IMG/VR virus record: IMGVR_UViG_3300044676_005519
Coordinates: 1 to 49,148 of that record
Direction: 5' to 3' (one strand)
DNA: 49,148 nt
DNA from: a virus
Taxonomy: Duplodnaviria; Caudoviricetes
Position numbers and translations under genes: made by a program. Of the stretch, positions 16,036 through 33,726 are shown piece after piece (position 1 is the first letter of the stretch; every line of letters begins with the position of its first letter). The notes beneath the pieces are model-generated. The model saw only the letters and a program-made list of their open reading frames with translations, was not told where the DNA came from and did not search any database.

Positions 16036-16257
16036 ATGACTCTCTTTTATCTTCTAATGCTGACAATTGTCGTATTAGTTGCTTATGCTGGATATGATGC
16101 TACTATGAGATTGGTCCAATTTATAGATCTCCAAGTCAGATATGCTGGAATAAGGATTCAAATGAAGTGGATGGAGCAGAAACTTAGAAGGAGACTTCTC
16201 AAGGATACTGCGAACTACCAACAACTACTCAAGGAGCACAAAGAGAATGACCTCTGA
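16036..16257 (+). CDS. small membrane protein
   Basis: GGAG RBS; N-terminal hydrophobic helix. Confidence 0.65.
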   Translation: MTLFYLLMLTIVVLVAYAGYDATMRLVQFIDLQVRYAGIRIQMKWMEQKLRRRLLKDTANYQQLLKEHKENDL

Positions 16258-16483
16258 TACTAAAGAGTGTCCAAAGTGTGGAGCAACGTGGATAGGGGGA
16301 CAGCATTACTGGTCTGGAACTGGTAAATTGGGAAATGAATTGGATCTTGCTGGACTAGTTTGTAATAATTATAGTGATGAAACCTGCATAAACCCTTGCA
16401 TGGGACTTGAAGGTGGAGTAACCTGGAAAGATAGAATGACGCAATTGGAATCTTTAGATGAGTCATCGAATGGACGAGATTAA
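16247..16483 (+). CDS. small Cys-rich hypothetical protein
   Basis: ECPKCGATW...LAGLVCN...CINPC. Confidence 0.7.
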   Translation: MTSDTKECPKCGATWIGGQHYWSGTGKLGNELDLAGLVCNNYSDETCINPCMGLEGGVTWKDRMTQLESLDESSNGRD

Positions 16484-16665: not shown

Positions 16666-16749
16666 ATGAGCACAATGTTTGTATTTGCTTTTATTTTATT
16701 GCTAATTTCTGGTATGCAACTAACATGGCCAGGGAGGTACAGAGGTTAA
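16666..16749 (+). CDS. 27-aa membrane micropeptide (not in ORF track)
   Basis: MSTMFVFAFILLLISGMQLTWPGRYRG; GGAG RBS; TAATG coupling to the next gene. Confidence 0.55.
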   Translation: MSTMFVFAFILLLISGMQLTWPGRYRG

Positions 16750-16961: not shown

Positions 16962-17082
16962 ATCGATTAATGAGTGGTACTCGTCTCAAGGTCAATCAGT
17001 TCCGAAATGGAAATTAAAAAAAGATCCACAGTGGTGGATCGATTATCTCACAGAGTTAAACATAGACCCAAGGAATCCATGA
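16936..17082 (+). CDS. hypothetical protein
   Basis: GAGGAG RBS before ATG 16936; ATGA overlap with gnd. Confidence 0.6.
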   Translation: METAQIIDESINEWYSSQGQSVPKWKLKKDPQWWIDYLTELNIDPRNP

Positions 17083-18113
17083 AAGTAGGCATTATTGGTT
17101 TAGGTAGAATGGGCGAGGGTATGTCTCGTCGTATGATGAAAGTAGGTATTGAAACCTGGGGATACAGAAGAAATTATGCCAAAGCCGAAGAGGCATATGA
17201 AAAAGGTTATGTTAGTGGAGTCACTACTGACTTAGAAAATCTTGTTAAAGTTGTAAAGGATGGTGGAAGTGCTGGAGAGTGTCCTGGTATTTTTCAACTT
17301 GTTATCCCCGCAGAACTAGTAGAGGACACGATCAATGAGTTACTACCATTACTTAGCGACGGGGATATTATTATTGATCATGGCAATTCCAATTTTAAGG
17401 ACTCGCGCCGCAGAGCCGAGTCCCTGGAAAAACTGGGCATCCAATATATTGATTGCGGTACTAGTGGTGGAGTTTATGGTCTGGAGCGTGGATACTGTCT
17501 TATGGTTGGTGGTTCAAATAGCGCAGTATCTGTCTGTGCCCCCATTTTCAGGGCACTCGCACCTGGCATTGGATCTGCCCATCGCACTGATCCTCTAAGT
17601 TATGAGACTTCTGCTGAGCATGGTTGGTTACATTGTGGTGGACCTGGAGCAGGTCACTTTGTAAAAATGGTTCATAACGGTGTCGAATATGGAATCATGC
17701 AAGCATACGCAGAAGGATTTAATATCCTGCATGAAGCTAATGCTGGGTCACAGTACGTTAAGGAAGGTGATGCTGAGGTGGCTCCGATGGAGAATCCGAG
17801 GGATTATCAATATGATATTGACGTTGCTGAAGTGGCTGAGTTATGGCGTCGTGGTTCTGTTGTTGGCAGTTGGTTACTTGATCTTACCGCTGATGTACTA
17901 CGGGGCGATAGAGAACTTAGCAAGTTCGGTGGGGGAGTTAGCGATAGTGGTGAGGGTCGTTGGACTGTTCATGCCGCTGTCGATTTGGGTGTCCCCGCTC
18001 CTGTCATTACTACAGCGTTGTATGAGCGTTTTAACTCTCGTTCATTGGGTGTATTTGGAAGAAAGGTATTGAATGGAATGCGGTATATGTTCGGAGGACA
18101 CAACGTAAGATGA
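17079..18113 (+). CDS. gnd: 6-phosphogluconate dehydrogenase (short, phage type)
   Basis: GIIGLGRMG, IIDHGNS, GTSGG, GAGHFVKMVHNGVEYG, DSGEGRWT. Confidence 0.96.
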   Translation: MKVGIIGLGRMGEGMSRRMMKVGIETWGYRRNYAKAEEAYEKGYVSGVTTDLENLVKVVKDGGSAGECPGIFQLVIPAELVEDTINELLPLLSDGDIIIDHGNSNFKDSRRRAESLEKLGIQYIDCGTSGGVYGLERGYCLMVGGSNSAVSVCAPIFRALAPGIGSAHRTDPLSYETSAEHGWLHCGGPGAGHFVKMVHNGVEYGIMQAYAEGFNILHEANAGSQYVKEGDAEVAPMENPRDYQYDIDVAEVAELWRRGSVVGSWLLDLTADVLRGDRELSKFGGGVSDSGEGRWTVHAAVDLGVPAPVITTALYERFNSRSLGVFGRKVLNGMRYMFGGHNVR

Positions 18114-18241
18114 CTTTAGCACATGTCCTACTTTTCGGATCACTACCCTTTATATGTGCCACCGCATATTTCGGGCACAGAAAGGGTGAGAATAACTATT
18201 ATGAAACCGACGCCTACTCAGGAAATGGAACAGCGCATTAG
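18110..18241 (+). CDS. ndhP: NdhP-like subunit of NDH-1L (43 aa, not in ORF track)
   Basis: MTLAHVLLFGSLPFICATAYFGHRKGENNYYETDAYSGNGTAH: TM helix plus FG...YxTDxYxGNG(S/T)AH signature; ATGA coupled to gnd. Confidence 0.8.
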   Translation: MTLAHVLLFGSLPFICATAYFGHRKGENNYYETDAYSGNGTAH

Positions 18242-18428
18242 AATGAGATTTGCGTTTGCCATGTCATCATTTGGTAGGATGTTTAGACCTGATCATATCA
18301 CTATTGAAATGAGAGCACTCTGTAATGAATGGTCTCAGATTGAAGATCAACCACCTCAAGGTGATTTGTATAATGTAGATCGTTACTTCTTAGAACTTTG
18401 GAAAAAAAGAAATGAAACCAGTAACTAG
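18225..18428 (+). CDS. hypothetical protein
   Basis: MEQRIRMRFAFAMSSFGRMF...DLYNVDRYFLELW; start trimmed from 18123. Confidence 0.65.
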   Translation: MEQRIRMRFAFAMSSFGRMFRPDHITIEMRALCNEWSQIEDQPPQGDLYNVDRYFLELWKKRNETSN

Positions 18429-18504
18429 TATTTCAGCAACAATTATACTTTCTTCAGTTGCATGTTTTGTTGTCTGGGGGTTGTACCATGCATATCCTAG
18501 CTAA
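18412..18504 (+). CDS. ndhQ: NdhQ-like micropeptide (30 aa, not in ORF track)
   Basis: MKPVTSISATIILSSVACFVVWGLYHAYPS resembles the NdhQ TM/C-terminus ISAxxIL...WxLxxAY. Confidence 0.55.
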   Translation: MKPVTSISATIILSSVACFVVWGLYHAYPS

Positions 18505-18583
18505 TTATATTCCTTTTATTTTAATTGGATTAGTTTGTTTCTTCGGATTATTTCTATTCATCTTATCGGTTTTTCAAGAATGA
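18488..18583 (+). CDS. 31-aa membrane micropeptide (not in ORF track)
   Basis: MHILANYIPFILIGLVCFFGLFLFILSVFQE; ATGA coupled to the next gene. Confidence 0.5.
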   Translation: MHILANYIPFILIGLVCFFGLFLFILSVFQE

Positions 18584-18741
18584 TGTTACAGTTTGCTAGA
18601 TTCTGTGGTGTTGTATTAAACAACCCATACGGATTAGGATTCCTCTCAACCATTTTAGTCTTTGTCCCCATCATAGGAATGTGGGCAGTTCATAAGTATG
18701 GATGGGAACACTGGGAACCATTTGACAGAGGACACAAGTAG
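18580..18741 (+). CDS. small membrane protein
   Basis: TM helix followed by WAVHKYGWEHWEPF. Confidence 0.65.
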   Translation: MMLQFARFCGVVLNNPYGLGFLSTILVFVPIIGMWAVHKYGWEHWEPFDRGHK

Positions 18742-18750
18742 GGTTATAAT
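18722..18750 (+). promoter_or_regulatory. consensus sigma70 promoter TTGACA-17-TATAAT for tRNA-Pro
   Basis: -35 at 18722-18727; -10 at 18745-18750. Confidence 0.85.
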
Positions 18751-18760
18751 AAACACATAA

Positions 18761-18834
18761 CGGGGTGTAGCTCAGTTTGGTAGAGCACTCGCTTTGGGAG
18801 CGAGTGGCCGAAGGTTCAAATCCTTTCACCCCGA
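18761..18834 (+). tRNA. tRNA-Pro(UGG)
   Basis: CGGGGTG/CACCCCG acceptor; CTCGC-TT-TGG-GA-GCGAG. Confidence 0.96.
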
Positions 18835-18853
18835 TTGCATACATATTACAACG

Positions 18854-19024
18854 ATGCATTTTTATTCTGTGGAATACTGGCAAGAGAACTGGGAAACTCT
18901 TTTTGAAAGAGTGGAGAACGGAGAGACGATAGGTATAGAGAACGAGAACGGAGATAAAGCAGTGATGGTTCCAGCGGATGATGAACTCATACGCATGTAT
19001 ACTGATCACTCAGAAGCATCCTGA
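18854..19024 (+). CDS. small protein, Phd/YefM-like pattern
   Basis: YSVEYWQENWETLFERVENGETIGIENENGDKAVMVP resembles the Phd N-terminal fold. Confidence 0.55.
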   Translation: MHFYSVEYWQENWETLFERVENGETIGIENENGDKAVMVPADDELIRMYTDHSEAS

Positions 19025-19099
19025 GGGACTGTCGCATATTGGTTAATGCTCTCTGCTTATAACGGGGTAAACTGGGTTCAATTCCCAGCAGTCCTACCA
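19025..19099 (+). tRNA. tRNA-Ile(UAU), with encoded CCA
   Basis: GGGACTG/CAGTCCT-A-CCA; CTCTG-CT-TAT-AA-CGGGG. Confidence 0.88.
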
Positions 19100-19172
19100 G
19101 GGGGATTAGCAATCTGGTGAATGCACCGAACTCATAATTCGGCTGAGGTGGGTTCGATCCCCACATCCCCCA
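19100..19172 (+). tRNA. tRNA(CAU), elongator Met or Ile2
   Basis: GGGGGAT/ATCCCCC; CCGAA-CT-CAT-AA-TTCGG; lacks initiator features. Confidence 0.9.
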
Positions 19173-19201
19173 TTGACGGATCTCCGTCAAACCCTTATAA
19201 T
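19173..19201 (+). promoter_or_regulatory. sigma70 promoter TTGACG-17-TATAAT with -35 inside an inverted repeat
   Basis: TTGACGGA-TC-TCCGTCAA at 19173-19190; TATAAT at 19196-19201. Confidence 0.8.
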
Positions 19202-20207: not shown

Positions 20208-21302
20208 ATGACTGAACGTAAGAAGACAGCACTGGTGTTGGGTGCTGGTGGTTTTATTGGTAGTCACATGGTGAGAAGGCTGCGTAGTGAGGGATATTGG
20301 GTTCGTGGGGTAGACCTTAAGTATCCAGAGTATTCTGCTACTGTTGCCGATGAATTTATTCAAGGTGACCTTACTGATGCTAGTCTGGTTGAACGTGTTG
20401 TAGAGTTCAAAGGATATGCTGCAAACTTCTACAAGTTTGTTCCCTCTGAATATACTGATACTTTTGATGAAATCTATCAGTATGCTGCTGACATGGGTGG
20501 TGCAGGATTTGTTTTCAGTGGAGATAATGACTCTGAAATCATGAGTAACTCTGCATCTATCAATATCAACCTTCTTGAAGCACAAAGAAAGTTGAATGAT
20601 AACAAGGGTGTAAACAAGACCAAGATCTTCTACAGCAGCAGTGCTTGCATGTATCCTGAGTATGCTCAGATGGATGTTAACAATCCTGGTCTGAAAGAGA
20701 CCGATGCATATCCTGCAGGTCCTGACTCTGAGTATGGTTGGGAAAAACTGTTCTCAGAACGTCTCTTCCTTGCATACAACCGCAATCACAACATCGAAGT
20801 TCACATCGGTCGTTTCCACAACATCTTTGGTCCTGAGGGCACCTGGACTGGTGGTAGAGAGAAGTCTCCTGCAGCAATGTGTCGCAAGGTTGCAATGGCA
20901 GCAGATGGTGGAGAAGTTGAAATCTGGGGTGATGGTGAGCAAACTCGTTCATTCCTTTTCGTTGAGGAGTGTGTTGAAGCAACTCGTCGTCTGATGGAAT
21001 CCGACTTCTCTGGTCCTGTGAACATTGGATCTGAGGAGATGGTCACCATTAATCAACTGGCAGACATTGCTGCCAAGGTTGCTGGTAAGACCATTGTCAA
21101 GAAGCACATTGACGGTCCTCTGGGTGTTCGTGGTCGTAACTCCAACAACGATCTTGTTCGTGAGAAACTTGGTTGGGACTACACTATGACTCTGGAAGAA
21201 GGTATGGCTAAGACATATGCCTGGGTTGAAGAGCAAGTCAAGCAGAGTGAAGAACCCACCTACTACGAAGATAGTTTTGGACTAGTCGCGGGGACTGTTT
21301 GA
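20208..21302 (+). CDS. NAD-dependent epimerase, GDP-mannose 3,5-epimerase-like
   Basis: GAGGFIG; AADMGGAGF; SSACMYP; YGWEK; GRFHNIFGP..GGREKSPAA.CRK; WGDGEQTRSF. Confidence 0.88.
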   Translation: MTERKKTALVLGAGGFIGSHMVRRLRSEGYWVRGVDLKYPEYSATVADEFIQGDLTDASLVERVVEFKGYAANFYKFVPSEYTDTFDEIYQYAADMGGAGFVFSGDNDSEIMSNSASININLLEAQRKLNDNKGVNKTKIFYSSSACMYPEYAQMDVNNPGLKETDAYPAGPDSEYGWEKLFSERLFLAYNRNHNIEVHIGRFHNIFGPEGTWTGGREKSPAAMCRKVAMAADGGEVEIWGDGEQTRSFLFVEECVEATRRLMESDFSGPVNIGSEEMVTINQLADIAAKVAGKTIVKKHIDGPLGVRGRNSNNDLVREKLGWDYTMTLEEGMAKTYAWVEEQVKQSEEPTYYEDSFGLVAGTV

Positions 21303-21303
21303 G

Positions 21304-22227
21304 ATGAACGTTGTTTCAGGTAATTGTGCTGGGACCTTTAGTGGGTTCCTAGCACAATTGGCATGGATGGAAACTGCAGAGAAGAATCCAGAGATCAATC
21401 TTGCTTTGCATACTAGAAACAAAACCCACTACCCTGGTAGCAGTTACTCCAACTATCGTTGGTTTAGTTCTGCAGATTGTAATAATATTGATGAAGTTGT
21501 AGGAGAAAATATTCTATTTGACTTCTTTGAACCAAATGAGTACATGACAAAGGAGTATCCTGAGGAGTTTACTTATTTTGAAACCTACCCTGCTGATATC
21601 AAAGATCAGTTTTCTAATTATCCGGAAGACACTTTGAAGTATGATGGTAGAGGAAGTAAGAAGGAACAGTATACCGATACTGAATTCTTCAACAATACCA
21701 GAGTTGCTTTGAATCGACAGTGGAATAAGTTTACTTTCACTGATCGTATGAAGAAACTGATCGCAGAAGAGGAAAAACTGATTGAAGGTAAGAAGGTTAT
21801 GACCCTTATGCTTCGTCACTCTGAGCACTATGCTGGAGCAACCAAGGGATATAAACTTGGTGGTCCTGCAGTCATGGAGAATTCTATTCGTTGTGTGAAA
21901 GAACGCATTGATGATTATGATGCGATTCTCCTTACTACACTGATTCAACCTTTCGTGGATCAATTCCGTGATATGTTTGGTGATAGGTTGATCACTACTA
22001 ATAGAGATCGTTTCCCGATTGATATTGACTGGAAAGGTGGTCGTTATACTCAAGAACCAATGACTGATGTTGAGTATGATACTGAGTATCAGAATGCATT
22101 TCTTGATGTTGCTCTGACCTCCAAGACTGATCTGGCTATTGGAAGCAGCAGCAATATGTTCCTTGCCTCTATGTGCATGAATCCAGAACTAAAATACGAA
22201 ATGTTTGTTATCGCAGATGGGTGTTGA
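21304..22227 (+). CDS. putative fucosyltransferase-fold (GT23/NodZ-like) protein
   Basis: LMLRHSE and DVALTSKTDLAIGSSSNMF resemble alpha-6/O-FucT motifs. Confidence 0.5.
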   Translation: MNVVSGNCAGTFSGFLAQLAWMETAEKNPEINLALHTRNKTHYPGSSYSNYRWFSSADCNNIDEVVGENILFDFFEPNEYMTKEYPEEFTYFETYPADIKDQFSNYPEDTLKYDGRGSKKEQYTDTEFFNNTRVALNRQWNKFTFTDRMKKLIAEEEKLIEGKKVMTLMLRHSEHYAGATKGYKLGGPAVMENSIRCVKERIDDYDAILLTTLIQPFVDQFRDMFGDRLITTNRDRFPIDIDWKGGRYTQEPMTDVEYDTEYQNAFLDVALTSKTDLAIGSSSNMFLASMCMNPELKYEMFVIADGC

Positions 22228-22228
22228 T

Positions 22229-23083
22229 ATGAAAAAACAATTTAAACTACTGAATGACAGTTGGATTCATTTGAGTAATGGAAACAAAGGTCACATGATT
22301 CATGGAAAAGAATCCAAGTATCTTGATTGGATTCACTGTGGTGAGGGAAAACAACAAGATACTTTTAATTCTCTTGTATCAACAGATGAAACCTTCTATG
22401 TTGATAAGTTTCTCCCTGTTGGTCTTCAAGACTCAAAGAGTGCTGTCAAATATGGCATCATTTTTGAGTGTGGCTGGATCATGCAACCAGTTATTGATCA
22501 AGTAAAAGAAAATCTTGATGCATATATGAATTGCTATGAGAAGATTTTTACTTGGTCTGAGGAACTTTGTGAACTGCATGACAGAATTTGCTGGATTCCT
22601 GGGTACGGATCTTACATTGAAGAACCTCAAATCTATCCTAAGACCAAACTAGTATCGATTATTTGTTCCATGCAATCTTGGTTGCCTGGGCATCGTGATC
22701 GTCTTGCAATGGTTGAACAACTGGCTCCATATGCCCCCTGGTTTGGTAAGGGACGTGGTGATATGGAGATTGAACGGAAGGAAGAGGGTCTTGCTGACTA
22801 CATGTTCTCTGTTGCCATTGAGAATATGGACAACTGGTTCACCGAAAAGATCATTGATTGCTTCCTCTGCGGTACTGTACCCATCTTTTACGGTACTCCA
22901 AACATTGGTAAGTGGTTCAACACTGATGGAATCATCATTCTTGAGGATGGATTTGACATTGAAGAACTGACAGAGGAGATGTATTATTCCAGAATGGATG
23001 CTATCAAGGACAACTTTGAGAGAGCACTGAAGATGGAAAACGTTGAAGACTTTATGTGGGAGAATTATTTTGAACAACGATAA
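22229..23083 (+). CDS. GT10-like glycosyltransferase (alpha-1,3-fucosyltransferase motif)
   Basis: YMFSVAIEN...WFTEKIIDCFLCGTVPIFYG. Confidence 0.75.
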   Translation: MKKQFKLLNDSWIHLSNGNKGHMIHGKESKYLDWIHCGEGKQQDTFNSLVSTDETFYVDKFLPVGLQDSKSAVKYGIIFECGWIMQPVIDQVKENLDAYMNCYEKIFTWSEELCELHDRICWIPGYGSYIEEPQIYPKTKLVSIICSMQSWLPGHRDRLAMVEQLAPYAPWFGKGRGDMEIERKEEGLADYMFSVAIENMDNWFTEKIIDCFLCGTVPIFYGTPNIGKWFNTDGIIILEDGFDIEELTEEMYYSRMDAIKDNFERALKMENVEDFMWENYFEQR

Positions 23084-23804
23084 AATTTGTCTTATCCACC
23101 ACTTTGCTGGAGTTGGTGATGTTTTCTTCCTCCAATACGTGGCAAGAAAGTATCTTGCTATGGGTTATCGAGTCATTTGGCCACTGAGAGATAAGATTAT
23201 CTGGATCAAAGACTATATTCCAGACATTGAATTCTGTTCAATGAACGATGATTTTCCTGGAAAACAGTACTATGGTCAGGATGTGATCATCGTATCTCCC
23301 AATTTTGTCTATCTTGGTATCATGAAAGCACATCTCTGGGGCAATGACTACGGTGTATCTGATGAGGATACCTGTGCTTGCATGTCTGCTAAGTATGATC
23401 TCATGCATCTTGATTGGCATGACTGGTCTAAAGGATTCAAGTTCAATCGCAACATTGACAAGGAAAATGAACTCTATTATGATGTCCTTGGTTTGAAAGA
23501 TGACTCAGAATATACCTTTGTAAACCGTTATTCAAACACAGATAATCGTAAAAATGATGTATTGGTGATGCAGGACTTCAAATATCCTGCAGTAAACCTA
23601 GATATTGTTGGTGGATTCTCCCTCTTTGACTGGTGTAAGGTCATTGAGAATGCTAAAGAAATCCATACAGTACATACATCTGTGCCCTATCTGATTGATA
23701 TGCTAGATATCAAGGCAGAAAAATACATCATGTATCAGGGGAACCACAATGATGATGTGAAGCACATCCCCTTCTCCAAAAATCCTGTCTACATTCCAAA
23801 CTAA
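23070..23804 (+). CDS. putative glycosyltransferase-like protein
   Basis: AGVGDVFF N-terminal motif; IENAKEIHTVHTS; TTG start uncertain. Confidence 0.5.
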   Translation: MNNDKICLIHHFAGVGDVFFLQYVARKYLAMGYRVIWPLRDKIIWIKDYIPDIEFCSMNDDFPGKQYYGQDVIIVSPNFVYLGIMKAHLWGNDYGVSDEDTCACMSAKYDLMHLDWHDWSKGFKFNRNIDKENELYYDVLGLKDDSEYTFVNRYSNTDNRKNDVLVMQDFKYPAVNLDIVGGFSLFDWCKVIENAKEIHTVHTSVPYLIDMLDIKAEKYIMYQGNHNDDVKHIPFSKNPVYIPN

Positions 23805-23816
23805 CGAGGTGCTACT

Positions 23817-24251
23817 ATGAAAATGCCTATTTCTGAAATCATTGACCGATATACAATTTCTAAACTCAAGTCCGAACGTACTAGTGAAGATGTTTCTCAT
23901 GAAGTGAACTCATATTCTGAGGAAATTAGTCAGTATAATGCTGAAGAAGTTACTCCATACGTTGAAAAGATGTATGAAATCAACGGAACTCTCTGGGATT
24001 ATGAAACCAGAATGCGTAAACTGATGGACAGTCGCAATGGAACTGGTCCTGTAGTTGATGCAAATGATCTTCCACTCGCAGAAATCGGCAAACTTGCTCT
24101 TCTGGTACGTGATCTCAACGGCACTCGTAATGGTGTTAAATCTGAAATTGTTGAGAAGTTCAGTGAAGGATTCAAGGACATCAAGATCAATTATGTGAAG
24201 ACAGATTATCCTGTTCTTTCTAATCTTGGTCTCAAGTTTGAAGATGAATGA
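23817..24251 (+). CDS. hypothetical coiled-coil protein
   Basis: GAGG RBS; SEIIDRYTI..LK...INGTLWDYE...N..R..K pattern. Confidence 0.7.
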   Translation: MKMPISEIIDRYTISKLKSERTSEDVSHEVNSYSEEISQYNAEEVTPYVEKMYEINGTLWDYETRMRKLMDSRNGTGPVVDANDLPLAEIGKLALLVRDLNGTRNGVKSEIVEKFSEGFKDIKINYVKTDYPVLSNLGLKFEDE

Positions 24252-24580
24252 GGTATGTTGTAGATATTGATGGTACTATCTGCGATCCTGGACCGGACAG
24301 GGAGACAAGATATACTCTTGCTACTCCCCGACAGGGTAGGATTGACTTCATAAATAAGTTATATGATGAAGGACACACCATCATATATCTGACAGCTAGA
24401 GGTATGGGTCAGTTTGATAACTGCCGAAAGATCGCAGAGGAAACATTCTACGATTTTACCTGGAAACAATTAGAGTCATGGGGTTGCAAATTCCATGACT
24501 TATTTTTAGGTAAACCTGCTGCAGATTTGTATATTGACGATAGAGGCATCAATGATCATGACTTCTTCATTCCAAACTGA
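24248..24580 (+). CDS. HAD-family (capsule biosynthesis) phosphatase
   Basis: VDIDGTI; LTARG; GKPAADLYIDD. Confidence 0.85.
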   Translation: MRYVVDIDGTICDPGPDRETRYTLATPRQGRIDFINKLYDEGHTIIYLTARGMGQFDNCRKIAEETFYDFTWKQLESWGCKFHDLFLGKPAADLYIDDRGINDHDFFIPN

Positions 24581-24908
24581 AGAAAGACCTTGGGGTATGT
24601 TTGAGACTTTATATGATGCTGAATCGTATAAAGTAAAAAGAATTTACGTAAACCCAAACCAATCTTTCTCACTTCAATATCACAATCACCGTTGGGAAGA
24701 TTGGATTATTGTTGAGGGAAGTGGTATAATTAATGATGGGTTTGAAGTAAGAAATTGTCTAGTTGGTGATAGATTTCACATTCCACCAAAAAATATTCAC
24801 AGAGCAACTGCTGGTCCAGATGGGATAACCTTTATTGAAGTTCAACGTGGTATTTGTGATGAGAGTGACATCGTTAGATTGGAAGATAACTACGGAAGAG
24901 TTGTCTAA
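24552..24908 (+). CDS. cupin, mannose-6-phosphate isomerase type II C-terminal-like
   Basis: ERPWG; SLQYHNHRWEDW; IEVQRG; DIVRLEDNYGR. Confidence 0.85.
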   Translation: MIMTSSFQTEERPWGMFETLYDAESYKVKRIYVNPNQSFSLQYHNHRWEDWIIVEGSGIINDGFEVRNCLVGDRFHIPPKNIHRATAGPDGITFIEVQRGICDESDIVRLEDNYGRVV

Positions 24909-24953
24909 AGCATCCTTGTATGCTATTATCTTGTTAAATCGTTAAGAAATTCA

Positions 24954-25697
24954 ATGAATCGTTTTACTGATTATTCTGAACTAAAAGGACGTATTGTTGA
25001 GTGGTTACATAACTACTGTTCCATTAACAACATCAAATCATTGGTAATTGGTGTCTCTGGTGGTATTGATTCTGCAGTGAGTTCTACTCTTGCAGCATCA
25101 ACTGGTCTGCCAACCTATGCTATTGGTATGCCGATCAACCAGATCGAAGGTCAAAAAGATCTCTCAGAAGCACACCTTAATTGGTTGGATGAAAAGTTTG
25201 ATAATGTAACTGTTCTGAGATTTGATCACTCAGAAACTTTTGAAACCTTCAAGGGTATCATGGGTGAAGATTATGGATCTGATAAGATGGCACTTGCCAA
25301 TACCAGGTCTCGCATTCGCATGGTCACTCTCTATCAGGTTGCTGCAACTGTTGGTGGTATCGTTGTTGGTACTGGAAACAAAGTTGAAGATTATGGTGTT
25401 GGTTTCTATACTAAGTATGGTGATGGTGGTGTAGATATTGCACCCATTGCAGACCTCTACAAAACTGAGGTATGGGAATTTGGTAAGTTCTTTGGTATCG
25501 ATGAGAGAATCATTGAAGCACAACCAACTGATGGTCTGTGGGACGATGGTAGAACTGATGAGGATCAACTTGGTGCATCTTATGCTGATCTGGAGTATGC
25601 TATGGAACATGGCACTGGACCTGCTGTTAGAGTTCTGCATAAGTTCAACACCCAGAACAAGCACAAGATGATTCCCATTCCTACCTTTACAGTATGA
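24954..25697 (+). CDS. nadE: NH3-dependent NAD+ synthetase
   Basis: GVSGGIDS; NTRSRIRM; GTGNKVE; GFYTKYGDGG; DLYKTEV; PTDGLW. Confidence 0.93.
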   Translation: MNRFTDYSELKGRIVEWLHNYCSINNIKSLVIGVSGGIDSAVSSTLAASTGLPTYAIGMPINQIEGQKDLSEAHLNWLDEKFDNVTVLRFDHSETFETFKGIMGEDYGSDKMALANTRSRIRMVTLYQVAATVGGIVVGTGNKVEDYGVGFYTKYGDGGVDIAPIADLYKTEVWEFGKFFGIDERIIEAQPTDGLWDDGRTDEDQLGASYADLEYAMEHGTGPAVRVLHKFNTQNKHKMIPIPTFTV

Positions 25698-26653
25698 GCG
25701 TCTGTCTAATTGTTAGTGATGAAGTGTCTGATGACACTTGGAAGAAAGAGATCCCACCATATAGTGGATTGGGAACTGAAGGCATAGGATCTGTGTTCCA
25801 ATACCAGATCCTACTGGCCTTCTTTGCCGATTTTATGGGTGTTGATTACACCTTCTCTGGTACAACAAAAATCTCTCATCACTCTTATACAAACAAGTCT
25901 GAAAAAGACTTTTGTGGATCCCTAGATGAGTTCTTTAATCTGTCCAACATCAAAAAAGAGTGGGATAGAGTGCATATGTTTGCACAACTTTCTGGAACTC
26001 AAGATCCTAGAGGTGCTCAAATATTCAATGGTGAATTGCAAGCATTTATTGAAGAGCACAGGGACAGTGAAGAAAATATATTAGTCAATCTCCACTGGTG
26101 TCACCTTTACCTGGCACATTTCTGCAAGGCAAATGTCTCTCAAATCTTTACAAAAGAAAGGATTGACAAAATGAGAGCAAATTTGGTATACAATGGTGAG
26201 AAATATTTTGATGATAAGATTAATATTTCTTGGCATGTTAGAACACCAAACCCAAATGATGTTCCAGCAGAGATTGTCTCCCCTCTGAGAGAACTATACT
26301 TTTATGAGAAAGACTATCAAAGATATCTGAATTTAATTACTGTTCTGAAAAATACTTTTGACGGTCAAGATGTGAATCTGCACATTCACTCGCAAGGATT
26401 TACATCTGATTTCAGTGAGTTTACTAAGTTAAAGAATAAAAACTTTAACATTATTGCTCACCTGGATGAAGATGCCATCACTGACTTATATCATATGTCA
26501 CATGCAGATCTATTTGTTATGTCAAATAGTTCTTTTTCTTGGATCGCATCACTTCTCAATAGCAATCAGAAGATTGTGAGAGATAACTTTACTAATGGAC
26601 CATTCACCGTTAATTCTACTAGAGCAAACTACGACTTTACCAGTTACACATGA
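25694..26653 (+). CDS. putative fucosyltransferase-fold glycosyltransferase
   Basis: WHVRT and DLYHMSHADLFVMSNSSFSW motifs. Confidence 0.55.
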   Translation: MSVCLIVSDEVSDDTWKKEIPPYSGLGTEGIGSVFQYQILLAFFADFMGVDYTFSGTTKISHHSYTNKSEKDFCGSLDEFFNLSNIKKEWDRVHMFAQLSGTQDPRGAQIFNGELQAFIEEHRDSEENILVNLHWCHLYLAHFCKANVSQIFTKERIDKMRANLVYNGEKYFDDKINISWHVRTPNPNDVPAEIVSPLRELYFYEKDYQRYLNLITVLKNTFDGQDVNLHIHSQGFTSDFSEFTKLKNKNFNIIAHLDEDAITDLYHMSHADLFVMSNSSFSWIASLLNSNQKIVRDNFTNGPFTVNSTRANYDFTSYT

Positions 26654-27429
26654 AAAACACTATTAAAGATGTGCAGGATTTTTGGAATACAAGACCCTGT
26701 AATGTTCGACATTCTAAGAAAGAAGTTGGATCGAAAGAATATTTTGATGAAGTAGAGAAGAAGAAATTCTTTGTCGAACCTCACATCAAGTCATTCTCAA
26801 AGTTCAATGAGTGGAATGGTAAGAAGGTATTGGAAATTGGTTGTGGACTTGCTACCGCAGGCATTAACTTTGCAAGGTATGGTGCTGAGTACACTGGGGT
26901 CGAACTTTCTTCTGAGAGTCTTGAATTGGCTAAGAAAAGGTTTGAAGTTTATGGTCAAACAGGTGATTTTTACGAAGGCAATGCTGAGGAACTTTCATCA
27001 TTTCTTCCTCCTGAGAAGTATCATCTGATCTATTCATGGGGTGTTCTGCACCATACTCCTCACCCTGAGAGAGCTATGGCAGAGATCAGTAAGTATCTTG
27101 CGAAGGATGGTATGTTCAAACTGATGCTGTATTCTTCTGAATCTTGGAAGAACTACATGATCAGTATTGGTCTTGATCAACCTGAGGCACAGTACGGATG
27201 TCCAGTTGCTTACACTTATACTGAGGAAGAGATTCATGATCTTCTAGGTGATTACTTTGACGTAGTTTCGATTGAGAGAGATCACATTTTTCCTTATCAG
27301 ATTGAACCATACAAGAAGGGAGAGTATGTTAAACAACCATGGTTTGAGGCAATGCCCCAAGAAATGTTTGATGTGCTTGAAAAGAAAATTGGTTGGCATC
27401 TGCTGATCACTGCAAAACCAAAATCGTAG
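26650..27429 (+). CDS. class I SAM-dependent methyltransferase
   Basis: VLEIGCGL; IYSWGVLHHTP. Confidence 0.9.
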   Translation: MKNTIKDVQDFWNTRPCNVRHSKKEVGSKEYFDEVEKKKFFVEPHIKSFSKFNEWNGKKVLEIGCGLATAGINFARYGAEYTGVELSSESLELAKKRFEVYGQTGDFYEGNAEELSSFLPPEKYHLIYSWGVLHHTPHPERAMAEISKYLAKDGMFKLMLYSSESWKNYMISIGLDQPEAQYGCPVAYTYTEEEIHDLLGDYFDVVSIERDHIFPYQIEPYKKGEYVKQPWFEAMPQEMFDVLEKKIGWHLLITAKPKS

Positions 27430-27439
27430 GAGTCGTAAA

Positions 27440-28597
27440 ATGAAAATTGGAGTTATTGGGGCTGGTAGACTTGGTATCTGTTTTGCACTCCTTTGTGATG
27501 AAGCAGGATATGATGTTCTTGTCTCTGACATTAGAGAGGACTATGTAAACAGTCTGAACAATAGAGAAATTATTACTAATGAACCAGAGGTCTCTAATCT
27601 TCTGAAGAGAGCAAAGAATTTTAGAGCAACAACTGACAATAGAGAGGTTATTGAAGAGTGTGATTTAATCTACACACTCGTAGCAACTCCTTCTCTACCT
27701 GATGGATCGTACAATGTTTCTTCTGTGTGGGACGTTGTGAAGTGTTTTGAGGGTGTAGAGAAGAAGAAATACTTCGTTGTTGGATGTACAACAAACCCTG
27801 GGGACTGTGATAAGTTTGCGGCAGAACTTCCTAGCAATGTCAAGGTATTTTATAACCCAGAGTTTATTGCTCAGGGATCTATCATCAATGATTTGAGAAC
27901 GGCAGACATGGTTCTGTTGGGTCATGATCTGCAAGATGAAACAATCAATGACATAGTTGCTGACATCAAAAAACTGTATATCAAGATTCAAACAACCAGA
28001 GCAATTGTTTGTACAATGTCAAACACTGCTGCTGAGGTAACTAAGATCGCAACGAATTGTTTCCTGACAACTAAAATCAGTTATGCTAACATGTTGGGTG
28101 ATGTGTTGCGTCAATCTGGATGTGGAGATGAGATTACTTCTGTTCTTGGTGCCATCGGTGCAGACAGTCGGGTTGGTAAGAAATATCTGAACTATGGATA
28201 TGGATATGGTGGTCCTTGTTTGCCAAGGGATAATAGAGCATTTGCTGCCTTTGCAAAAGAATCTGGATTAGAATATAATTTAGGATTTGTTACTGATGAA
28301 ATTAACACACAACATGCAGTGTTCCTTTGTGAGTATTATGAATCTGTAAACACTAGCAACAATCCTTTCTATTTTGACTCGATTGCATATAAGAAAGGAA
28401 CTGATATCCTAACGGAAAGTCAACAACTTAAACTATGCACTGACTTCCTTGATCGTGGTCATAGAGTTTATGTCCGTAATGATCACAAAGCAGTACCACA
28501 AGTTCAAGAAGAACTCTATGTAAAGTATGGAGATAGAGTGAGATTTGTTGACAGTCCAGAGAACATCAAAGAACCCGTATTTATTGTTGAATTATGA
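27440..28597 (+). CDS. UDP-glucose/GDP-mannose 6-dehydrogenase family
   Basis: GAGRLG; VATPS; YNPEF; AEVTKIATN; GYGGPCLPRD; YKKGT. Confidence 0.9.
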   Translation: MKIGVIGAGRLGICFALLCDEAGYDVLVSDIREDYVNSLNNREIITNEPEVSNLLKRAKNFRATTDNREVIEECDLIYTLVATPSLPDGSYNVSSVWDVVKCFEGVEKKKYFVVGCTTNPGDCDKFAAELPSNVKVFYNPEFIAQGSIINDLRTADMVLLGHDLQDETINDIVADIKKLYIKIQTTRAIVCTMSNTAAEVTKIATNCFLTTKISYANMLGDVLRQSGCGDEITSVLGAIGADSRVGKKYLNYGYGYGGPCLPRDNRAFAAFAKESGLEYNLGFVTDEINTQHAVFLCEYYESVNTSNNPFYFDSIAYKKGTDILTESQQLKLCTDFLDRGHRVYVRNDHKAVPQVQEELYVKYGDRVRFVDSPENIKEPVFIVEL

Positions 28598-29697
28598 CTA
28601 GAGAAACAAAAAATCTTTCAATCAAATCTGTTGATGAGATCAAGGGAATCCTTGATACTATTGATACTGAAGAATATTCATTGGTCAACTATGTCTGGAC
28701 AGAGTATGGATTCTATCCAACATACTTCAATGAATTGTTCAGAGAATTTTTTGAGGACGTAAAAGGTCCGATCCTGGGATTTTGTTTTCCTGGTCAAGAA
28801 GTTTTTTATGAAGGTAAAGTAGATATTCTTGTAAGTCTTGAGGGTTTTCTTGATACCACAAAGGCATACTCGGACAATCAAGAAACAGAACTTCTCCTCA
28901 ACAATTTCAAAACAATTGATGATCGTGGAGTTGCATTCTGGTTTACTGTTCGCAACTTTGATGAAGATGCATATGAAGATGCATTCTCTGGATACACCTT
29001 CAGAAACATTATCTTCCCCATTGGTAAGAGACTTCCTTGGGAACTTGGTTGGCCTCCTGGTCCTGGTCATCAATATGCTGATGGTGAAGATGGACCATGG
29101 CGTTTTCCAAGTTGCAAATACTACATCGATAAAGTTCAGTCATATGATTTGAATCTGTGGGATCCTTCTTTCAAACGTGGAGAGGGTTTGGGTATTGGAG
29201 AGTACAATACTTTCTTTGTTAAGAATAGTTTTAAGACTAGAAACTATGGATCTGCTAACATCGATGATTATCTTGTAGGAAAAGATGGAACCTCAGGTGA
29301 TCTTGGATTTGGAAGTGTAGAGTTTGATTTCTATGCCAAAGTAGTTGATTATCATATCAATAACAAAAAAAATCTTGTGGTGATTCATGATCTTGTTAGG
29401 TTCCCTGAAATTGAAAGTGAGTATATTCACTACGTTGACATGAGGGGTAACTTGGATGTAAGATTATTCCTAACGATTGTAGATGACTCTAATAGTTTTA
29501 TTAACACTGGCACAAGTCCTGGTGATCTTGCTGCATATTACTGCAAGACTAACCAAGTTATCATCGGAGATCAAGTGATTCAGAACAGAACTCAGTTTGC
29601 TGATATCATTCTTGGTCGCAATGATAGAAAGGTGTGTCGATTCCGCAAGGAAGATCAGAATTATGATGAGTTGTTTGCATTCCTTTCAGAGAATTGA
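28594..29697 (+). CDS. hypothetical protein in the glycan island
   Basis: 367-aa ORF coupled to its neighbours. Confidence 0.7.
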   Translation: MTRETKNLSIKSVDEIKGILDTIDTEEYSLVNYVWTEYGFYPTYFNELFREFFEDVKGPILGFCFPGQEVFYEGKVDILVSLEGFLDTTKAYSDNQETELLLNNFKTIDDRGVAFWFTVRNFDEDAYEDAFSGYTFRNIIFPIGKRLPWELGWPPGPGHQYADGEDGPWRFPSCKYYIDKVQSYDLNLWDPSFKRGEGLGIGEYNTFFVKNSFKTRNYGSANIDDYLVGKDGTSGDLGFGSVEFDFYAKVVDYHINNKKNLVVIHDLVRFPEIESEYIHYVDMRGNLDVRLFLTIVDDSNSFINTGTSPGDLAAYYCKTNQVIIGDQVIQNRTQFADIILGRNDRKVCRFRKEDQNYDELFAFLSEN

Positions 29698-29700
29698 TTT

Positions 29701-30702
29701 ATGAAGACAGCACTTATTACAGGTATCACAGGTCAAGATGGTTCATATCTTGCTGAGTTTCTCTTAGAGAAGGGATATGAAGTTCACGGAATCATCAGAA
29801 GATCTTCCATGATTAACACTCATAGGATTGACCATATCTTTGGTAAAATCATACTTCACTATGGTGATCTGACCGACTCCACTAACATGGTGAGAGTGAT
29901 TCAGAAAGTTCAACCAGATGAAATCTATAATCTGGGTGCTCAAAGTCATGTAAAAGTGTCTTTTGAAACCCCCGAATACACTGGTATGGTGGATGGTCTT
30001 GGGACACTTCGTGTCCTTGAGGCTGTCCGTCTTTTGGGTCTTGAGCATAAGACCAGAATCTATCAGGCATCTACGTCAGAGATGTTTGGTAAGGTTAGAG
30101 AGATCCCTCAGAAGGAGACTACACCATTTCACCCCAGATCTCCTTATGGTTGTGCTAAAGTATATGCATATTGGACAACAAAGAACTATAGAGAAGCATA
30201 TGGAATGTATGCTTGTAGTGGCATCTTGTTTAATCATGAGTCGCCAAGACGTGGTGAAACTTTTGTGACAAGAAAAATCACCCGTGGTTTGAAGGCAATC
30301 TCTGAAGGAAAGCAAGAAGTTCTGGCACTTGGAAATTTAAATGCAAAACGTGACTGGGGACATGCTAAAGACTTTGTTGAGGCGATGTGGTTGATGCTTC
30401 AGCAGGAGCAGGCAGACGACTATGTAATCGCAACAGAAGAACAGCATACAGTTCGTAAGTTTGTCGAACATGCTGCTCCTTATTTCGGCATGGACATTGT
30501 GTGGGAAGGTGAGGGTGATAATGAAGTTGGTATCGATAACAATACTGGAAAAATTATTGTCAAAGTAAATCCAAAATACTATCGTCCATCTGAAGTTGAT
30601 ACTTTGTTGGGTGATTGTTCAAAGGCAAAGAATGATCTTGGATGGAGTCCAAAGATTACCTTCGATGAGTTAGTTTATGACATGTGTAAAAATGAATCTT
30701 GA
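29701..30702 (+). CDS. gmd: GDP-mannose 4,6-dehydratase
   Basis: [11 protein letters not shown]; [12 protein letters not shown]; QASTSE; SPYGCAK; [17 protein letters not shown]. Confidence 0.97.
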
Positions 30703-31624
30703 CAGCAAAATTTATGTGGCAGGTCATAATGGTCTGGTTGGATCTGCTCTCGTCCGTGTTCTTCGTGAGAATGGATATCGAAACTTAATATATGCCAAGC
30801 ACAAAGATGTTGATCTCTGCGATGAGCATCAAACTAAGCAGTTTTTTGAACATACAAAACCAGATTATGTTTTTCTTGCTGCTGCTAAATGTGGTGGGAT
30901 AGGTGATACTAAAAATAATCCAGTTCAGTATCTAGAAGATAATCTGAAGATTCAAACAAATGTCATTTCTTCTTGTCATAGTGTCAAGGTAAAGAAAATG
31001 ATTATGTTGGGATCAGCAAGTGTATATCCTGCACAATCTATTCAACCAATCAAAGAAGAATACTTGCTGACTGGTAAATTGGAACCAGTGAATGAGTCCT
31101 ATGGTATGGCAAAAATTCTTGGAACTAAGTTGTGTCAAGCATATAATAAGCAGTATGGCACCAACTTTATCACTGTTAATCCTTGTAATGTCTACGGACC
31201 CAAAGATAATTTTAATCCAACTTCAAGTCATGTTGTTGCAGCATTGCTTCGTAGATTTCATGAAGCAAAAGTATCTGAAAAGGAATTTGTTGAGTGTTGG
31301 GGAACAGGAAATGCAAGAAGAGAACTCATCTATGTTGAAGATCTTGCAAATGCTTTGATTCATCTTATGTCAATTGATGAGACCCCTGATGTTATTAATA
31401 TTGGACCAGGAAAGGACGTTTCGATTAGAGAACTTGTCGCTCACATTGTTGATGTGGTAGGATATGAGGGTGAGATTAGATGGGATGAAACCAAACCAGA
31501 AGGAGTAAAGCAACGTCTTCTTGATGTTTCAAAAATAAATGACCTTGGGTGGTCTGATCAAACCTCTTTGGACCAAGGTCTTTTCCACACATATGAATAC
31601 TTTAAATTAGGAGACAAAAAGTAA
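30692..31624 (+). CDS. fcl: GDP-L-fucose synthase / ColC-like epimerase-reductase
   Basis: AGHNGLVGS; AAAKCGGI; [11 protein letters not shown]; NVYGP.DNF; SHV; WGTGNARRE. Confidence 0.9.
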
Positions 31625-32781
31625 TGTATTGGCCTTTGATGGAGGAGACGATCACTCTGACAGATCGTCTCAAGATGGCAAAGTTTATTTTGACAGCTGG
31701 TCGTCTTACTAATGGACCTAGAGTTCGTAGGTTTGAGAAGGAATGGTCGGAGTGGCTTGGCACAAAAAACTCTCTCTATGTTGGTAACGGAAGTCTTGCA
31801 AACTTTCTTCTGGTTGCTGCAGTAAAAGAATATTACGATCTCAAAGATGGTGATAAAGTTCTTGTTCCTGCAACCACTTGGATGACAAATGTTGCTCCAA
31901 TCATTCAGAATAATCTTGAACCAATCTTTTGCGATATCAATCTGAATAACTATTCCTTCGATAAGGATGAGTTGAAGTATGTTGCAGAACAGCATCCTGA
32001 TATCAAAATGGTGTTCATTACACACCTGATTGGATTGTCATCTGATGTTGAGTATGTGAAAGAGATCTTCCCCGATGCTCTGATTCTAGAAGACGTGTGT
32101 GAATCTCATGGTGTAGAAGGTCCAGATGGTAAGAAACGAGGAACTCATAGCATTGGATCCACCTTTAGTTTCTACTTCGGGCATCACATCACGACCATTG
32201 AAGGTGGAATGATCTGCACTGACAATGAAGAACTTCATGACCTGATGAGAATCAAACGATCTCATGGAATGGCAAGAGAGTCTGATCTTTATTTCCCTCA
32301 GTATGCATCTCAGAACCCTAACATTGATCCTGCTTTCTTGTTTGTAACTGATGGTTATAACTTCCGTAACCATGAAGTATGTGCAGTTCTTGGTTCATCT
32401 CAACTTAAGAAACTGGATAGGAATGTAAAACTCCGTCGAGAGAACTATGATTGGTGGTTAAAAAAAGCACAGGATCACATCTTTAAATACTATCTTCCAG
32501 AATTTCAAAAAGGTAATAGTAGTTTCTCTTTTCCTTTGATTTGTAGGGAAAAGGAGAATGCTCAAAAACTGAAGCAAGTATTCAAAGATGAAGGCATTGA
32601 GTATCGACCAGTGATTAGTGGTAATCTTCTGTATCACCCTGCATTTAAAAAGTACAGTCTCTGCACTCAAAGAGAAACTCCCAATGTCAACATTCTTCAT
32701 GACCATGGACTTTATGTTGGGAACAGTCAGTTTGTCTGCTTTGATAAACTGCAGCACCTTATCCAATTGATGGATATATAA
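31624..32781 (+). CDS. colD: ColD-like PLP-dependent GDP-4-keto-6-deoxymannose 3-dehydratase (DegT fold)
   Basis: EDVCESHG; FSFYFGHHITTIEGG with His at the usual Schiff-base Lys; RSHG; GYNFR. Confidence 0.75.
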   Translation: MYWPLMEETITLTDRLKMAKFILTAGRLTNGPRVRRFEKEWSEWLGTKNSLYVGNGSLANFLLVAAVKEYYDLKDGDKVLVPATTWMTNVAPIIQNNLEPIFCDINLNNYSFDKDELKYVAEQHPDIKMVFITHLIGLSSDVEYVKEIFPDALILEDVCESHGVEGPDGKKRGTHSIGSTFSFYFGHHITTIEGGMICTDNEELHDLMRIKRSHGMARESDLYFPQYASQNPNIDPAFLFVTDGYNFRNHEVCAVLGSSQLKKLDRNVKLRRENYDWWLKKAQDHIFKYYLPEFQKGNSSFSFPLICREKENAQKLKQVFKDEGIEYRPVISGNLLYHPAFKKYSLCTQRETPNVNILHDHGLYVGNSQFVCFDKLQHLIQLMDI

Positions 32782-32799
32782 TTTACTTTTAATGGAATT

Positions 32800-33726
32800 A
32801 TGATTGGATATAATAGACTTGGTATCAATGGTAGATTGGGTAACCAGATGTTTCAGTATGCCTCTCTAAGGGGCATTGCTGCCAAACATGGGTATCAGTG
32901 GTGTATTCCTTCTAGAGATGCTGAGACAAACCATATGGCAGAGTATGTGCTAATGGATGGTTTCAAACTACCACACCTCAAGGAGGAGAACATAGGATAC
33001 GTCCCTGCTGATTGGCAAACGCATGATGAACCTTCACATGATTTCGATCCTGTGTTTTTTGAAAACTGTCCTGATAATATAAACATCGATGGATACAGGC
33101 AATCCACCAAATATTTTCAGCACATTGAAAATGAGATTAGAGAGGACTTTGAATTTGTTGATGAGGTTTACAATCCATGTAAAGAGTTTATCAGTCAATT
33201 TGATAACAATGTAATCGCACTTCATGTGCGTAGAACTGATGCTACTGGTAGACCTGATATGTATCCTGTAGCATCAGTTGGATGGTATGAAAGGATATTA
33301 AAGGAAAACTTTCCTGATGATGTACCAGTCCTTGTGTTTACTGATCAACTCAATTGGGTTCAGGAGCAGCCACTTTTCAAGCAAGATAGATTCCTTATCT
33401 CTGAACAGAGAGAGTATTCTAATTACAAAGTTTTGAATGGTCGTGGTGAAATGGAATATAGTTTGTTGCCTTGGATTGATCTTTGTATGATTAGTTTGTG
33501 CAACGGTTCTATCATTCCAAATAGCACTTTTGGATGGTGGGGATCCTGGTTACAGAAAGATAAGAAGTATGATACTGTCTATCAGTTCCCATACTTTGGC
33601 CCATTCTTTTACAAGATCAATCCTTGCTATAAAGACCTGAAAGATTTTTATCCTGAGCAATGGATAAAAGGACAACTGCCCGATGAACTTGTTGACCCTG
33701 AGTTTAATGCTGTAGAGAAATCATAA
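32800..33726 (+). CDS. GT11 alpha-1,2-fucosyltransferase-like
   Basis: GRLGNQMFQYA; LHVRRTD; NSTFGWWG. Confidence 0.88.
   Translation: MIGYNRLGINGRLGNQMFQYASLRGIAAKHGYQWCIPSRDAETNHMAEYVLMDGFKLPHLKEENIGYVPADWQTHDEPSHDFDPVFFENCPDNINIDGYRQSTKYFQHIENEIREDFEFVDEVYNPCKEFISQFDNNVIALHVRRTDATGRPDMYPVASVGWYERILKENFPDDVPVLVFTDQLNWVQEQPLFKQDRFLISEQREYSNYKVLNGRGEMEYSLLPWIDLCMISLCNGSIIPNSTFGWWGSWLQKDKKYDTVYQFPYFGPFFYKINPCYKDLKDFYPEQWIKGQLPDELVDPEFNAVEKS

Follow-up and report, generated by a model that had tools for sequence, protein, structure and literature searches.

Cyanophage micro-ORFs in a gene chain with gnd as viral NdhP and a probable N-terminally shortened NdhQ

Two micro-ORFs, which follow gnd in an overlapping chain of small genes in the DNA of a cyanophage, resemble the single-helix subunits NdhP and NdhQ of the host NDH-1L complex. 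ORF1 is almost certainly homologous to host NdhP, and ORF2, as judged from profile comparisons, is very probably homologous to host NdhQ. What is already known is a viral ndhP; what is unreported in the literature searched is a shortened viral ndhQ. As to their role, we favour, with a probability of roughly 60%, the reading that both phage peptides are produced, take up the positions of the host subunits, keep the host NDH-1L assembled and sustain the supply of ATP.

Results

Gene organisation downstream of gnd

The window, i.e. the whole stretch of DNA analysed, is a linear virus record of 49,148 bases, 26% complete according to CheckV. Its gene content, which includes primase, nrdA and nrdB, two photosystem II reaction-centre genes, petE and transaldolase, identifies the source as a T4-like cyanophage; nine tRNAs are also present. 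The micro-ORF pair sits within a run of small genes, with nrdB on one side and a sugar-modification island on the other.

Specifically, gnd (17079..18113, plus strand), with its ATG at 17079 and its stop codon at 18111-18113, encodes a short-type 6-phosphogluconate dehydrogenase of 344 amino acids, which scores above the cut-off of two NCBIfam models, PRK09599 (E 1.7e-112) and TIGR00872 (gnd_rel), and also matches phrog_1319. Its end overlaps, in an ATGA arrangement, the start of ORF1 (ndhP, 18110..18241, plus strand), which in turn shares 17 nt with a middle gene (18225..18428, plus strand; phrog_593, E 1e-30), coding for a predicted soluble three-helix protein of 67 residues. A second overlap of 17 nt joins the middle gene to ORF2 (ndhQ, 18412..18504, plus strand), whose 30-residue product has one predicted membrane helix ending in W-x-L-x-x-A-Y-P; the gap between ndhP and the ndhQ start is 171 nt. 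The overlapping chain carries on past ORF2 through two more small ORFs: a hydrophobic micro-ORF of 31 residues (18488..18583, plus strand; weak match to phrog_32454, E 0.02), overlapping the end of ndhQ by 17 nt, and a hydrophobic ORF of 53 residues (18580..18741, plus strand; phrog_1184, E 1e-31), the last one before the promoter of tRNA-Pro (18761-18834). Both micro-ORFs recorded in the first-pass annotation are present at these positions with the residues described there, and the chain in which it placed them, one gene apart after gnd, was likewise recovered.

No promoter was found for the overlapping chain, sigma-70-like sites numbering 10 against 8.5 expected. Three matches to the octamer that we take to be the T4 late promoter occur within the window, none of them close to the micro-ORF genes. 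Small shares of the region were recovered in 18 runs; contigs from four RNA runs covered gnd-like DNA, little or nothing of 18129-18583 and nothing of ORF2, and are uninformative on expression either way.

ORF1 as a viral NdhP

A single-sequence phmmer search of the PDB with ORF1 returned 6khi_P at E 3.8e-4, both top hits being NdhP, and a profile built from 23 phage sequences again gave NdhP as the best match, at E 8.1e-6. These matches bear out the earlier assignment of 18110-18241 to NdhP. ORF1 belongs to phrog_2173 (E 1e-26); in Pfam and NCBIfam no family was found for either ORF1 or ORF2. Size and topology are those of NdhP, with 43 amino acids (about 40-44 are expected), one predicted membrane helix and a conserved polar C-terminal tail, and the only hydrophobic stretch peaks at residues 3-21 (best 19-residue Kyte-Doolittle mean 1.69). 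In common with host NdhP (Sml0013; chain P of 6KHI and 6HUM), the phage protein shows a single helix, an F-G pair and a tail ending in Y-x-T-D-x-Y-x-G-N-G-x-A-H; unlike 6khi_P, it carries a 3-residue insertion after the helix. A G-E-N stretch of phage NdhP is invariant among the closest 23 sequences aligned.

ORF1 matches were found in 395 of 50,697 phage records, all bearing cyanophage or marine-virus names and many being near-identical isolates. Among the 60 listed of these 395, the matching region is annotated as hypothetical or lies under the edge of gnd. In addition, of 18 cultured phages selected through psbA alone, 14 carry ndhP. Phage ndhP is thus common and widespread, though mostly unnamed. 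Previous studies reported it for 'some cyanophages' (PMC6596454, which cites Schwarz 2013) and described further copies (PMC10452541), in agreement with the first-pass statement that the gene had been noted in such phages; a third report also mentions the gene, describing it as 'uncommon' and known before only from P-TIM68 (PMC12801897). Our counts (395 records; 14/18) disagree with this last statement and indicate a gene far more common than stated there.

ORF2 as a shortened NdhQ

When ORF2 was compared with the PDB as a single sequence, NdhQ ranked first with a weak score (E 0.33). A phage-only profile of 26 sequences, run against 177,635 PDB chains, placed two NdhQ chains at ranks 1 and 2 (E 0.0094 and 0.024), followed by unrelated membrane helices at E 0.11-0.15; this profile, with its E of 0.009, is the unbiased test of the NdhQ likeness. 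It also reached the database protein P0068, a clear NdhQ (6khi_Q, E 5e-15), whose homologues (the best 120 of 925 listed, from which two short forms were dropped) were used to build a host-only HMM of 118 proteins. ORF2 scored 27.8 bits on this HMM (E 1.4e-7), the runner-up among 1,835 six-frame segments of the window reaching 10.1 bits and seven other small window ORFs 3 bits or less; host-HMM scores are inflated, since it was the phage profile that initially led to the seed proteins and only the top 118 of 925 hits entered the model. With 2000 shuffles for each scheme, the score of ORF2 was never reached by shuffling the whole sequence, its core or its helix only, and was reached three times by shuffling the tail only. 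Profile-profile alignment of the phage family with host NdhQ by hhalign gave a probability of 95.8 (E 7.6e-9), and an HMM made exclusively of picocyanobacterial proteins (37 distinct sequences) recognised ORF2 at E 4.4e-7, the next match being at 1.3. The proposed search of six-frame micro-ORFs with host NdhQ HMMs, carried out on the window, therefore returned a significant match with both models. The ESM Atlas, queried with ORF2, listed only unrelated small membrane proteins, under 0.9.

The best 19-residue Kyte-Doolittle mean of ORF2 is 1.97. In 52 phage-type rows W is kept in 98%, L in 94%, A in 96%, Y in 100% and I in 75%, and the W-x-L-x-x-A-Y positions are kept at 96-100% in both host sets. 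While I, W, L, A and Y are thus retained in all three groups (phage, picocyanobacteria and long host forms), F, G, N and P are common to phage and picocyanobacteria only. The phage protein has the helix register of T. elongatus NdhQ (6KHI_Q, 6L7O_Q, 6HUM_Q; 45 aa), with the same small residue, Ile, Trp, Leu and Ala-Tyr near the C-terminus. The segment of about 16 residues preceding the helix, 92-100% conserved at most positions in the 118 host proteins, is absent from ORF2, which is for this reason classified as a shortened NdhQ and not as a full-length form. Only 2-5 residues precede the helix in phage NdhQ, and 46 of 52 members are 27-32 aa long. The phage form thus differs from host NdhQ in being virus-encoded, as a rule shorter, devoid of the N-terminal segment and much more variable, as well as in lacking annotation in the phage records listed and any place in PHROGs. 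In conclusion, the PDB profile, the host HMMs, the shuffles and the host bridge described below support the reading of 18412-18504 as NdhQ, with the qualification that the form is a shortened one.

A tblastn search with ORF2 at E <= 10 matched 73 phage records, namely 71 cyanophages and two Erwinia phages, the latter being probably chance matches. No annotated feature lies under the matches in the 60 listed, and none of the 52 family members matches a PHROGs family. In IMG/VR loci (the best 80 of 242), which were retrieved with the middle gene and not with ORF2, a relative of ORF2 lies downstream of the middle gene in 41 of 80; in 22 of these it directly abuts that gene, and in the other 19 over 100 nt separate the two. 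Frame conservation in related phages, proposed as a check on ORF2, was observed: in 30 members, chosen by protein similarity, which favours this result, the ATG start and the stop position are kept, and each of the other five frames is interrupted by stops in between 11 and 30 of these members. The second codon position of the family varies half as much as the others, with a pN/pS of 0.52 (n = 30). The family diverges fast, its members sharing 24-97% identity with ORF2. When the phage profile was run on a library of 1.84 billion proteins, 28 proteins were retrieved at E <= 0.001, mostly 29-37 aa long and without genomic context, with no full-length host NdhQ among them.

As a side observation, in two database proteins (P0065 and P0206) the end of a protein like the middle gene product is joined to an NdhQ-like helix. 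These fusions probably reflect homopolymer errors in sequencing; an A-run (18402-18408) lies just before the ndhQ start of the window.

A picocyanobacterial bridge to the phage form

A metagenome scan with the protein P0122 yielded 65 loci, 52 of which (L173-L224) contain a short NdhQ-like ORF in a host-like setting. The host evidence consists of database proteins and metagenome contigs, the loci being assigned to picocyanobacteria from gene order and GC content; a scan of genome contigs with gnd listed at least 80 loci, those listed being non-cyanobacterial. The NdhQ ORF is flanked by thiE and ribF in L223, L173, L188 and L218, and L201 was tested for the thiE side only. The NdhQ of locus L223 (E 1e-12 to NdhQ in the PDB) is full-length, having the canonical N-terminus, and ends in the C-terminal pattern seen in the short forms; since it shares with them both the thiE-ribF locus and this pattern, the short picocyanobacterial protein is identified as NdhQ. 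It measures about 36-40 aa, most forms being devoid of the canonical N-terminal motif, so that NdhQ lengths form a series from about 45 aa in the long host forms, through the picocyanobacterial proteins, to 27-32 aa in phages.

The phage proteins share with the picocyanobacterial ones the C-terminal pattern F-x-x-W-G-L-x-N-A-Y-P, and the residue pattern of phage NdhQ favours a picocyanobacterial origin. In a tree of 126 NdhQ cores the long host forms lie behind a 99/80 branch and the phage rows fall on the picocyanobacterial side; with its 26 columns, and with a bootstrap that is not settled, this tree cannot fix the donor. In terms of identity, ORF2 resembles the long host forms (44%) marginally more than the picocyanobacterial ones (40%). 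Phage ndhP and ndhQ were likely taken from picocyanobacterial hosts.

Association of ndhP and ndhQ with gnd

The first-pass annotation had described ndhP and ndhQ as translationally linked to gnd. In the window the ATGA overlap agrees with such a link, and co-expression with gnd is likely in this phage; it is not a conserved feature. The region upstream of ndhP was classified in the 63 loci whose contigs, which are redundant and not independent, extend 1.3 kb or more beyond the gene on that side: a full gnd was found in 12 (abutting ndhP in 7), only the Gnd N-terminal domain in 34 (abutting in 12) and neither in 17. Fixed coupling to gnd was rejected, as full gnd abuts ndhP in only 7 of the 63. 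ndhQ is present in 10 of 12 loci with full gnd, in 18 of 34 with the N-terminal domain and in 1 of 17 without either, that is, in 28 of 46 redundant contigs with a gnd-type gene versus 1 of 17 without; a full gnd abutting ndhP, with ndhQ as well, occurs in 5 of 63. The stand-alone Gnd N-terminal (dinucleotide-binding) domain that replaces full gnd in 34 of 63 loci (L005-L084) is about 155-195 aa long and was also seen in cultured phages of the ACG-2014a and ACG-2014b types.

A similar picture emerged from 22 cultured records, 4 picked by ORF2 and 18 by psbA, the latter hand-chosen, one per phage type, from the 60 listed of 512 records. In this set ndhP was found in 16, ndhQ in 7 and a gnd-type gene in 10. 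Four phages carry ndhP and ndhQ together (S-SSM2, S-CAM9, ACG-2014h and ACG-2014f), and three carry ndhQ without ndhP (ACG-2014i, S-RIM12 RW_01_0310 and S-CAM4), no ndhP having been found beside an ndhQ located near petE and the middle gene. Phages with ndhP only include S-RIM2 and S-SM1. Among the psbA-picked phages, ndhQ was found in 3 of 18 versus 14 of 18 for ndhP, and its absence from the matches in 12 of 14 ndhP carriers indicates that it is dispensable; a full HMM scan of 1.5 kb on each side of ndhP in the 16 cultured records revealed no further ndhQ. Therefore, ndhP and ndhQ are not an obligate pair. In each of the 10 cultured phages that matched gnd, ndhP lies no more than about 1.2 kb away, in support of a shared island, and a gnd match was lacking in 4 of 7 ndhQ phages and 6 of 16 ndhP phages in a loose first-look search, whose misses are not proof of absence. 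Other island neighbours are zwf, ferredoxin genes and petE. In conclusion, these genes form a variable, shuffled island of electron-flow and pentose-phosphate genes and not a fixed module.

The constant neighbour of ndhP, and the usual upstream neighbour of ndhQ, is the middle gene and not gnd. In loci selected on the middle gene, it overlaps ndhP in 78 of 80, and its start Met is invariant in 35 of 35 aligned sequences. A model of the protein shows three helices (pLDDT 89.9). It gave no PDB sequence match and no Foldseek match at E <= 0.001, the ESM Atlas was uninformative, and the best VIA Z of 5.8 (rmsd 2.9, 61 aligned) is background for a small helical bundle. A 101-aa reading of this ORF from 18123 was rejected, as loci without ndhP (L003, L004, L067) start at the shorter form. 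The phrog_593 model extends about 33 residues upstream, into a stretch shared with ndhP in a different frame, and ndhP may often be missed for this reason.

Discussion

In the host complex, NdhD is held between NdhP on one side and NdhQ on the other, the two subunits contacting NdhD, NdhF, lipids and carotenoids (PMC6992706, PMC7021789). Both are exclusive to NDH-1L: deletion of either leads about half of the complex to break down to NDH-1M, and deletion of both leads almost all of it to do so (PMC11794437, PMC4131877). In a published infection model, cyclic flow is routed through NDH (PMC5082946). In our preferred reading, the single-helix phage products would enter the thylakoid membrane and settle next to NdhD1, topping up or replacing the host copies while host expression fades; NDH-1L would be kept assembled through infection, and the flow from ferredoxin to plastoquinone, which serves cyclic flow and respiration, would be sustained and would yield ATP for phage replication. 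Homology of both genes rests on the comparisons reported above, and from it we infer expression, binding and the sign of the effect.

The complex modelling proposed as a check was carried out for the NdhQ peptide with NdhD. The ORF2 alignment combined with NdhD of Synechococcus WH7803 scored 0.52, compared with 0.00 for the best of three controls, with runs agreeing in 100% of contacts and a partner pLDDT of at least 77, no interface being given. Of the pairs used for calibration, 116 of 157 solved ones and 2 of 215 mismatched ones attained the mark, but only 18 of the 157, and both mismatches, did so with a score of 0.60 or under. As a like complex has already been solved, the predictor may simply have reproduced it, and the pass shows likeness, not binding. 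The outcome weakly suggests that ORF2 may dock on NdhD.

The phage peptides might instead bind the NdhP and NdhQ sites and re-tune or weaken the complex, in that a headless NdhQ would displace the host subunit, lose N-terminal contacts or regulation and tilt the balance of NDH-1L against other NDH-1 forms. We regard this as unlikely. The N-terminal segment is indeed missing from nearly all phage NdhQ (27-32 aa in 46/52), and the insertion that distinguishes phage NdhP from 6khi_P, together with its invariant G-E-N stretch, would fit an altered function. However, marine picocyanobacterial NdhQ, at about 36-40 aa, has already lost the canonical N-terminal motif, which makes the phage protein the continuation of a host trend, and phage photosynthesis genes generally sustain electron flow (PMC5082946). 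It is more doubtful still that an NdhQ-derived gene was re-used for another membrane job, for example in another thylakoid complex or in superinfection exclusion, the NDH-1L role being gone. Such a re-use would agree with the fast divergence of the family, with the three phages that gave no ndhP and have their ndhQ close to petE and the middle gene, and with the other unassigned membrane micro-ORFs surrounding ndhQ; yet the positions kept in the phage family (W, L, A, Y, I) are those kept in host NdhQ, and the weak predicted docking on NdhD also points away from it.

A fixed gnd-ndhP-ndhQ module, translationally coupled and feeding pentose-phosphate NADPH to NDH-1L, is likewise quite improbable. 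The ATGA overlap, the proximity of ndhP in 10 of 10 gnd-match cultured phages (of 22) and the higher share of ndhQ on redundant contigs bearing a gnd-type gene (28 of 46) than on those lacking one (1 of 17) would favour it, but a full gnd lies directly against ndhP in only 7 of 63 loci, 6 of 16 ndhP and 4 of 7 ndhQ cultured phages gave no gnd match, and the neighbours vary (zwf, ferredoxin genes, petE). Moreover, NDH-1L takes its electrons from ferredoxin and not from NADPH (PMC6992706), so that any link with Gnd would be indirect; with 17 of 63 loci lacking a gnd-type gene, the coupling to Gnd-derived NADPH put forward at first pass appears weaker than proposed. The least probable reading, to which we give very little credence, takes ORF2 for a generic hydrophobic micro-protein that resembles NdhQ through convergence or chance. 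About 24 columns only are aligned, the single-sequence E is 0.33, unrelated membrane helices follow at E 0.11-0.15 and the ESM Atlas matches, under 0.9, are unrelated small membrane proteins; against this stand the reciprocal profile hits, the shuffle controls, the picocyanobacterial bridge and the position of ORF2 171 nt after a clear ndhP. Chance likeness appears largely refuted by the host HMMs and shuffles.

Maintenance of host NDH-1L by phage NdhP and NdhQ, our preferred reading, would place these genes beside cyanophage ndhI, ndhD, petE, petF, gnd, zwf and talC, which are also host-derived genes in variable islands. Cyanophage electron-transport and pentose-phosphate genes are thought to sustain the ATP and NADPH supply (PMC10452541, PMC12801897, PMC5082946). 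NdhP and NdhQ differ from these auxiliary genes in being structural, non-redox subunits of one NDH-1 form, and for this reason would act on assembly and not on electron transfer. A further and rather speculative extension, which we consider unlikely, is that phages steer the NDH-1 form built by the host through NDH-1L-exclusive subunits, drawing the shared NDH-1M core into the complex used for cyclic flow and respiration at the expense of the CO2-uptake forms, with the middle three-helix protein as a partner.

No report of a phage NdhQ was found in the full-text literature searched. In PMC10452541 the single mention of ndhQ is a reference title, and the NdhQ passages of PMC12038448 deal with host evolution. 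The photosynthesis gene set of cyanophages would thus gain an overlooked host-derived ndhQ, and ndhP emerges as widespread in cyanophages and not rare. The involvement of NDH-1L-exclusive structural subunits points to viral control of complex assembly and not only of redox parts, and the 30-residue form suggests what may be the minimal working core of NdhQ. In addition, the long-standing infection model of cyclic flow through NDH becomes testable with peptides of 30 and 43 residues in deletion strains that already exist, and cultured phages with both genes, with only ndhP or with only ndhQ exist for this purpose.

Other features of the region

A further family of conserved single-helix proteins of 25-33 aa, usually ending in M-E-L-T-W-P, is represented in the window at 16666-16749 (plus strand) and was seen in 66 of 107 loci scanned. 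It gave no match in the PDB, often lies beside gnd, ndhP or ndhQ, and in P-SSM5 (L278) starts at the ndhP stop; it constitutes a third membrane micro-protein of the island.

At 16247-16483 (plus strand) a 78-aa four-cysteine protein (phrog_484) aligns weakly with the NCBIfam model for NblD along almost its full length (E 0.0022, well under the cut-off). Six of 12 relatives scanned match NblD at E <= 0.11, and the others match zinc-ribbon families. The NblD protein, which carries a CPxCG motif, acts in phycobilisome degradation, and the word 'phage' does not occur in the paper that describes it (PMC7865187). On sequence grounds, the phrog_484 protein is a possible viral NblD homologue.

A 16-kb island at 20208-36146 (plus strand) encodes nucleotide-sugar epimerases, a UDP-glucose dehydrogenase, an aminotransferase, a methyltransferase and glycosyltransferases, together with several ORFs without a PHROG family. 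Finally, a 12-of-12 sigma-70 consensus at 18722-18750 lies upstream of tRNA-Pro; in the region 18722-19201 (plus strand), tRNA-Pro is followed by a Phd-like antitoxin ORF (18854-19024), tRNA-Ile(TAT) and tRNA-Met, and then by a second sigma-70 site matching 11 of 12 positions.
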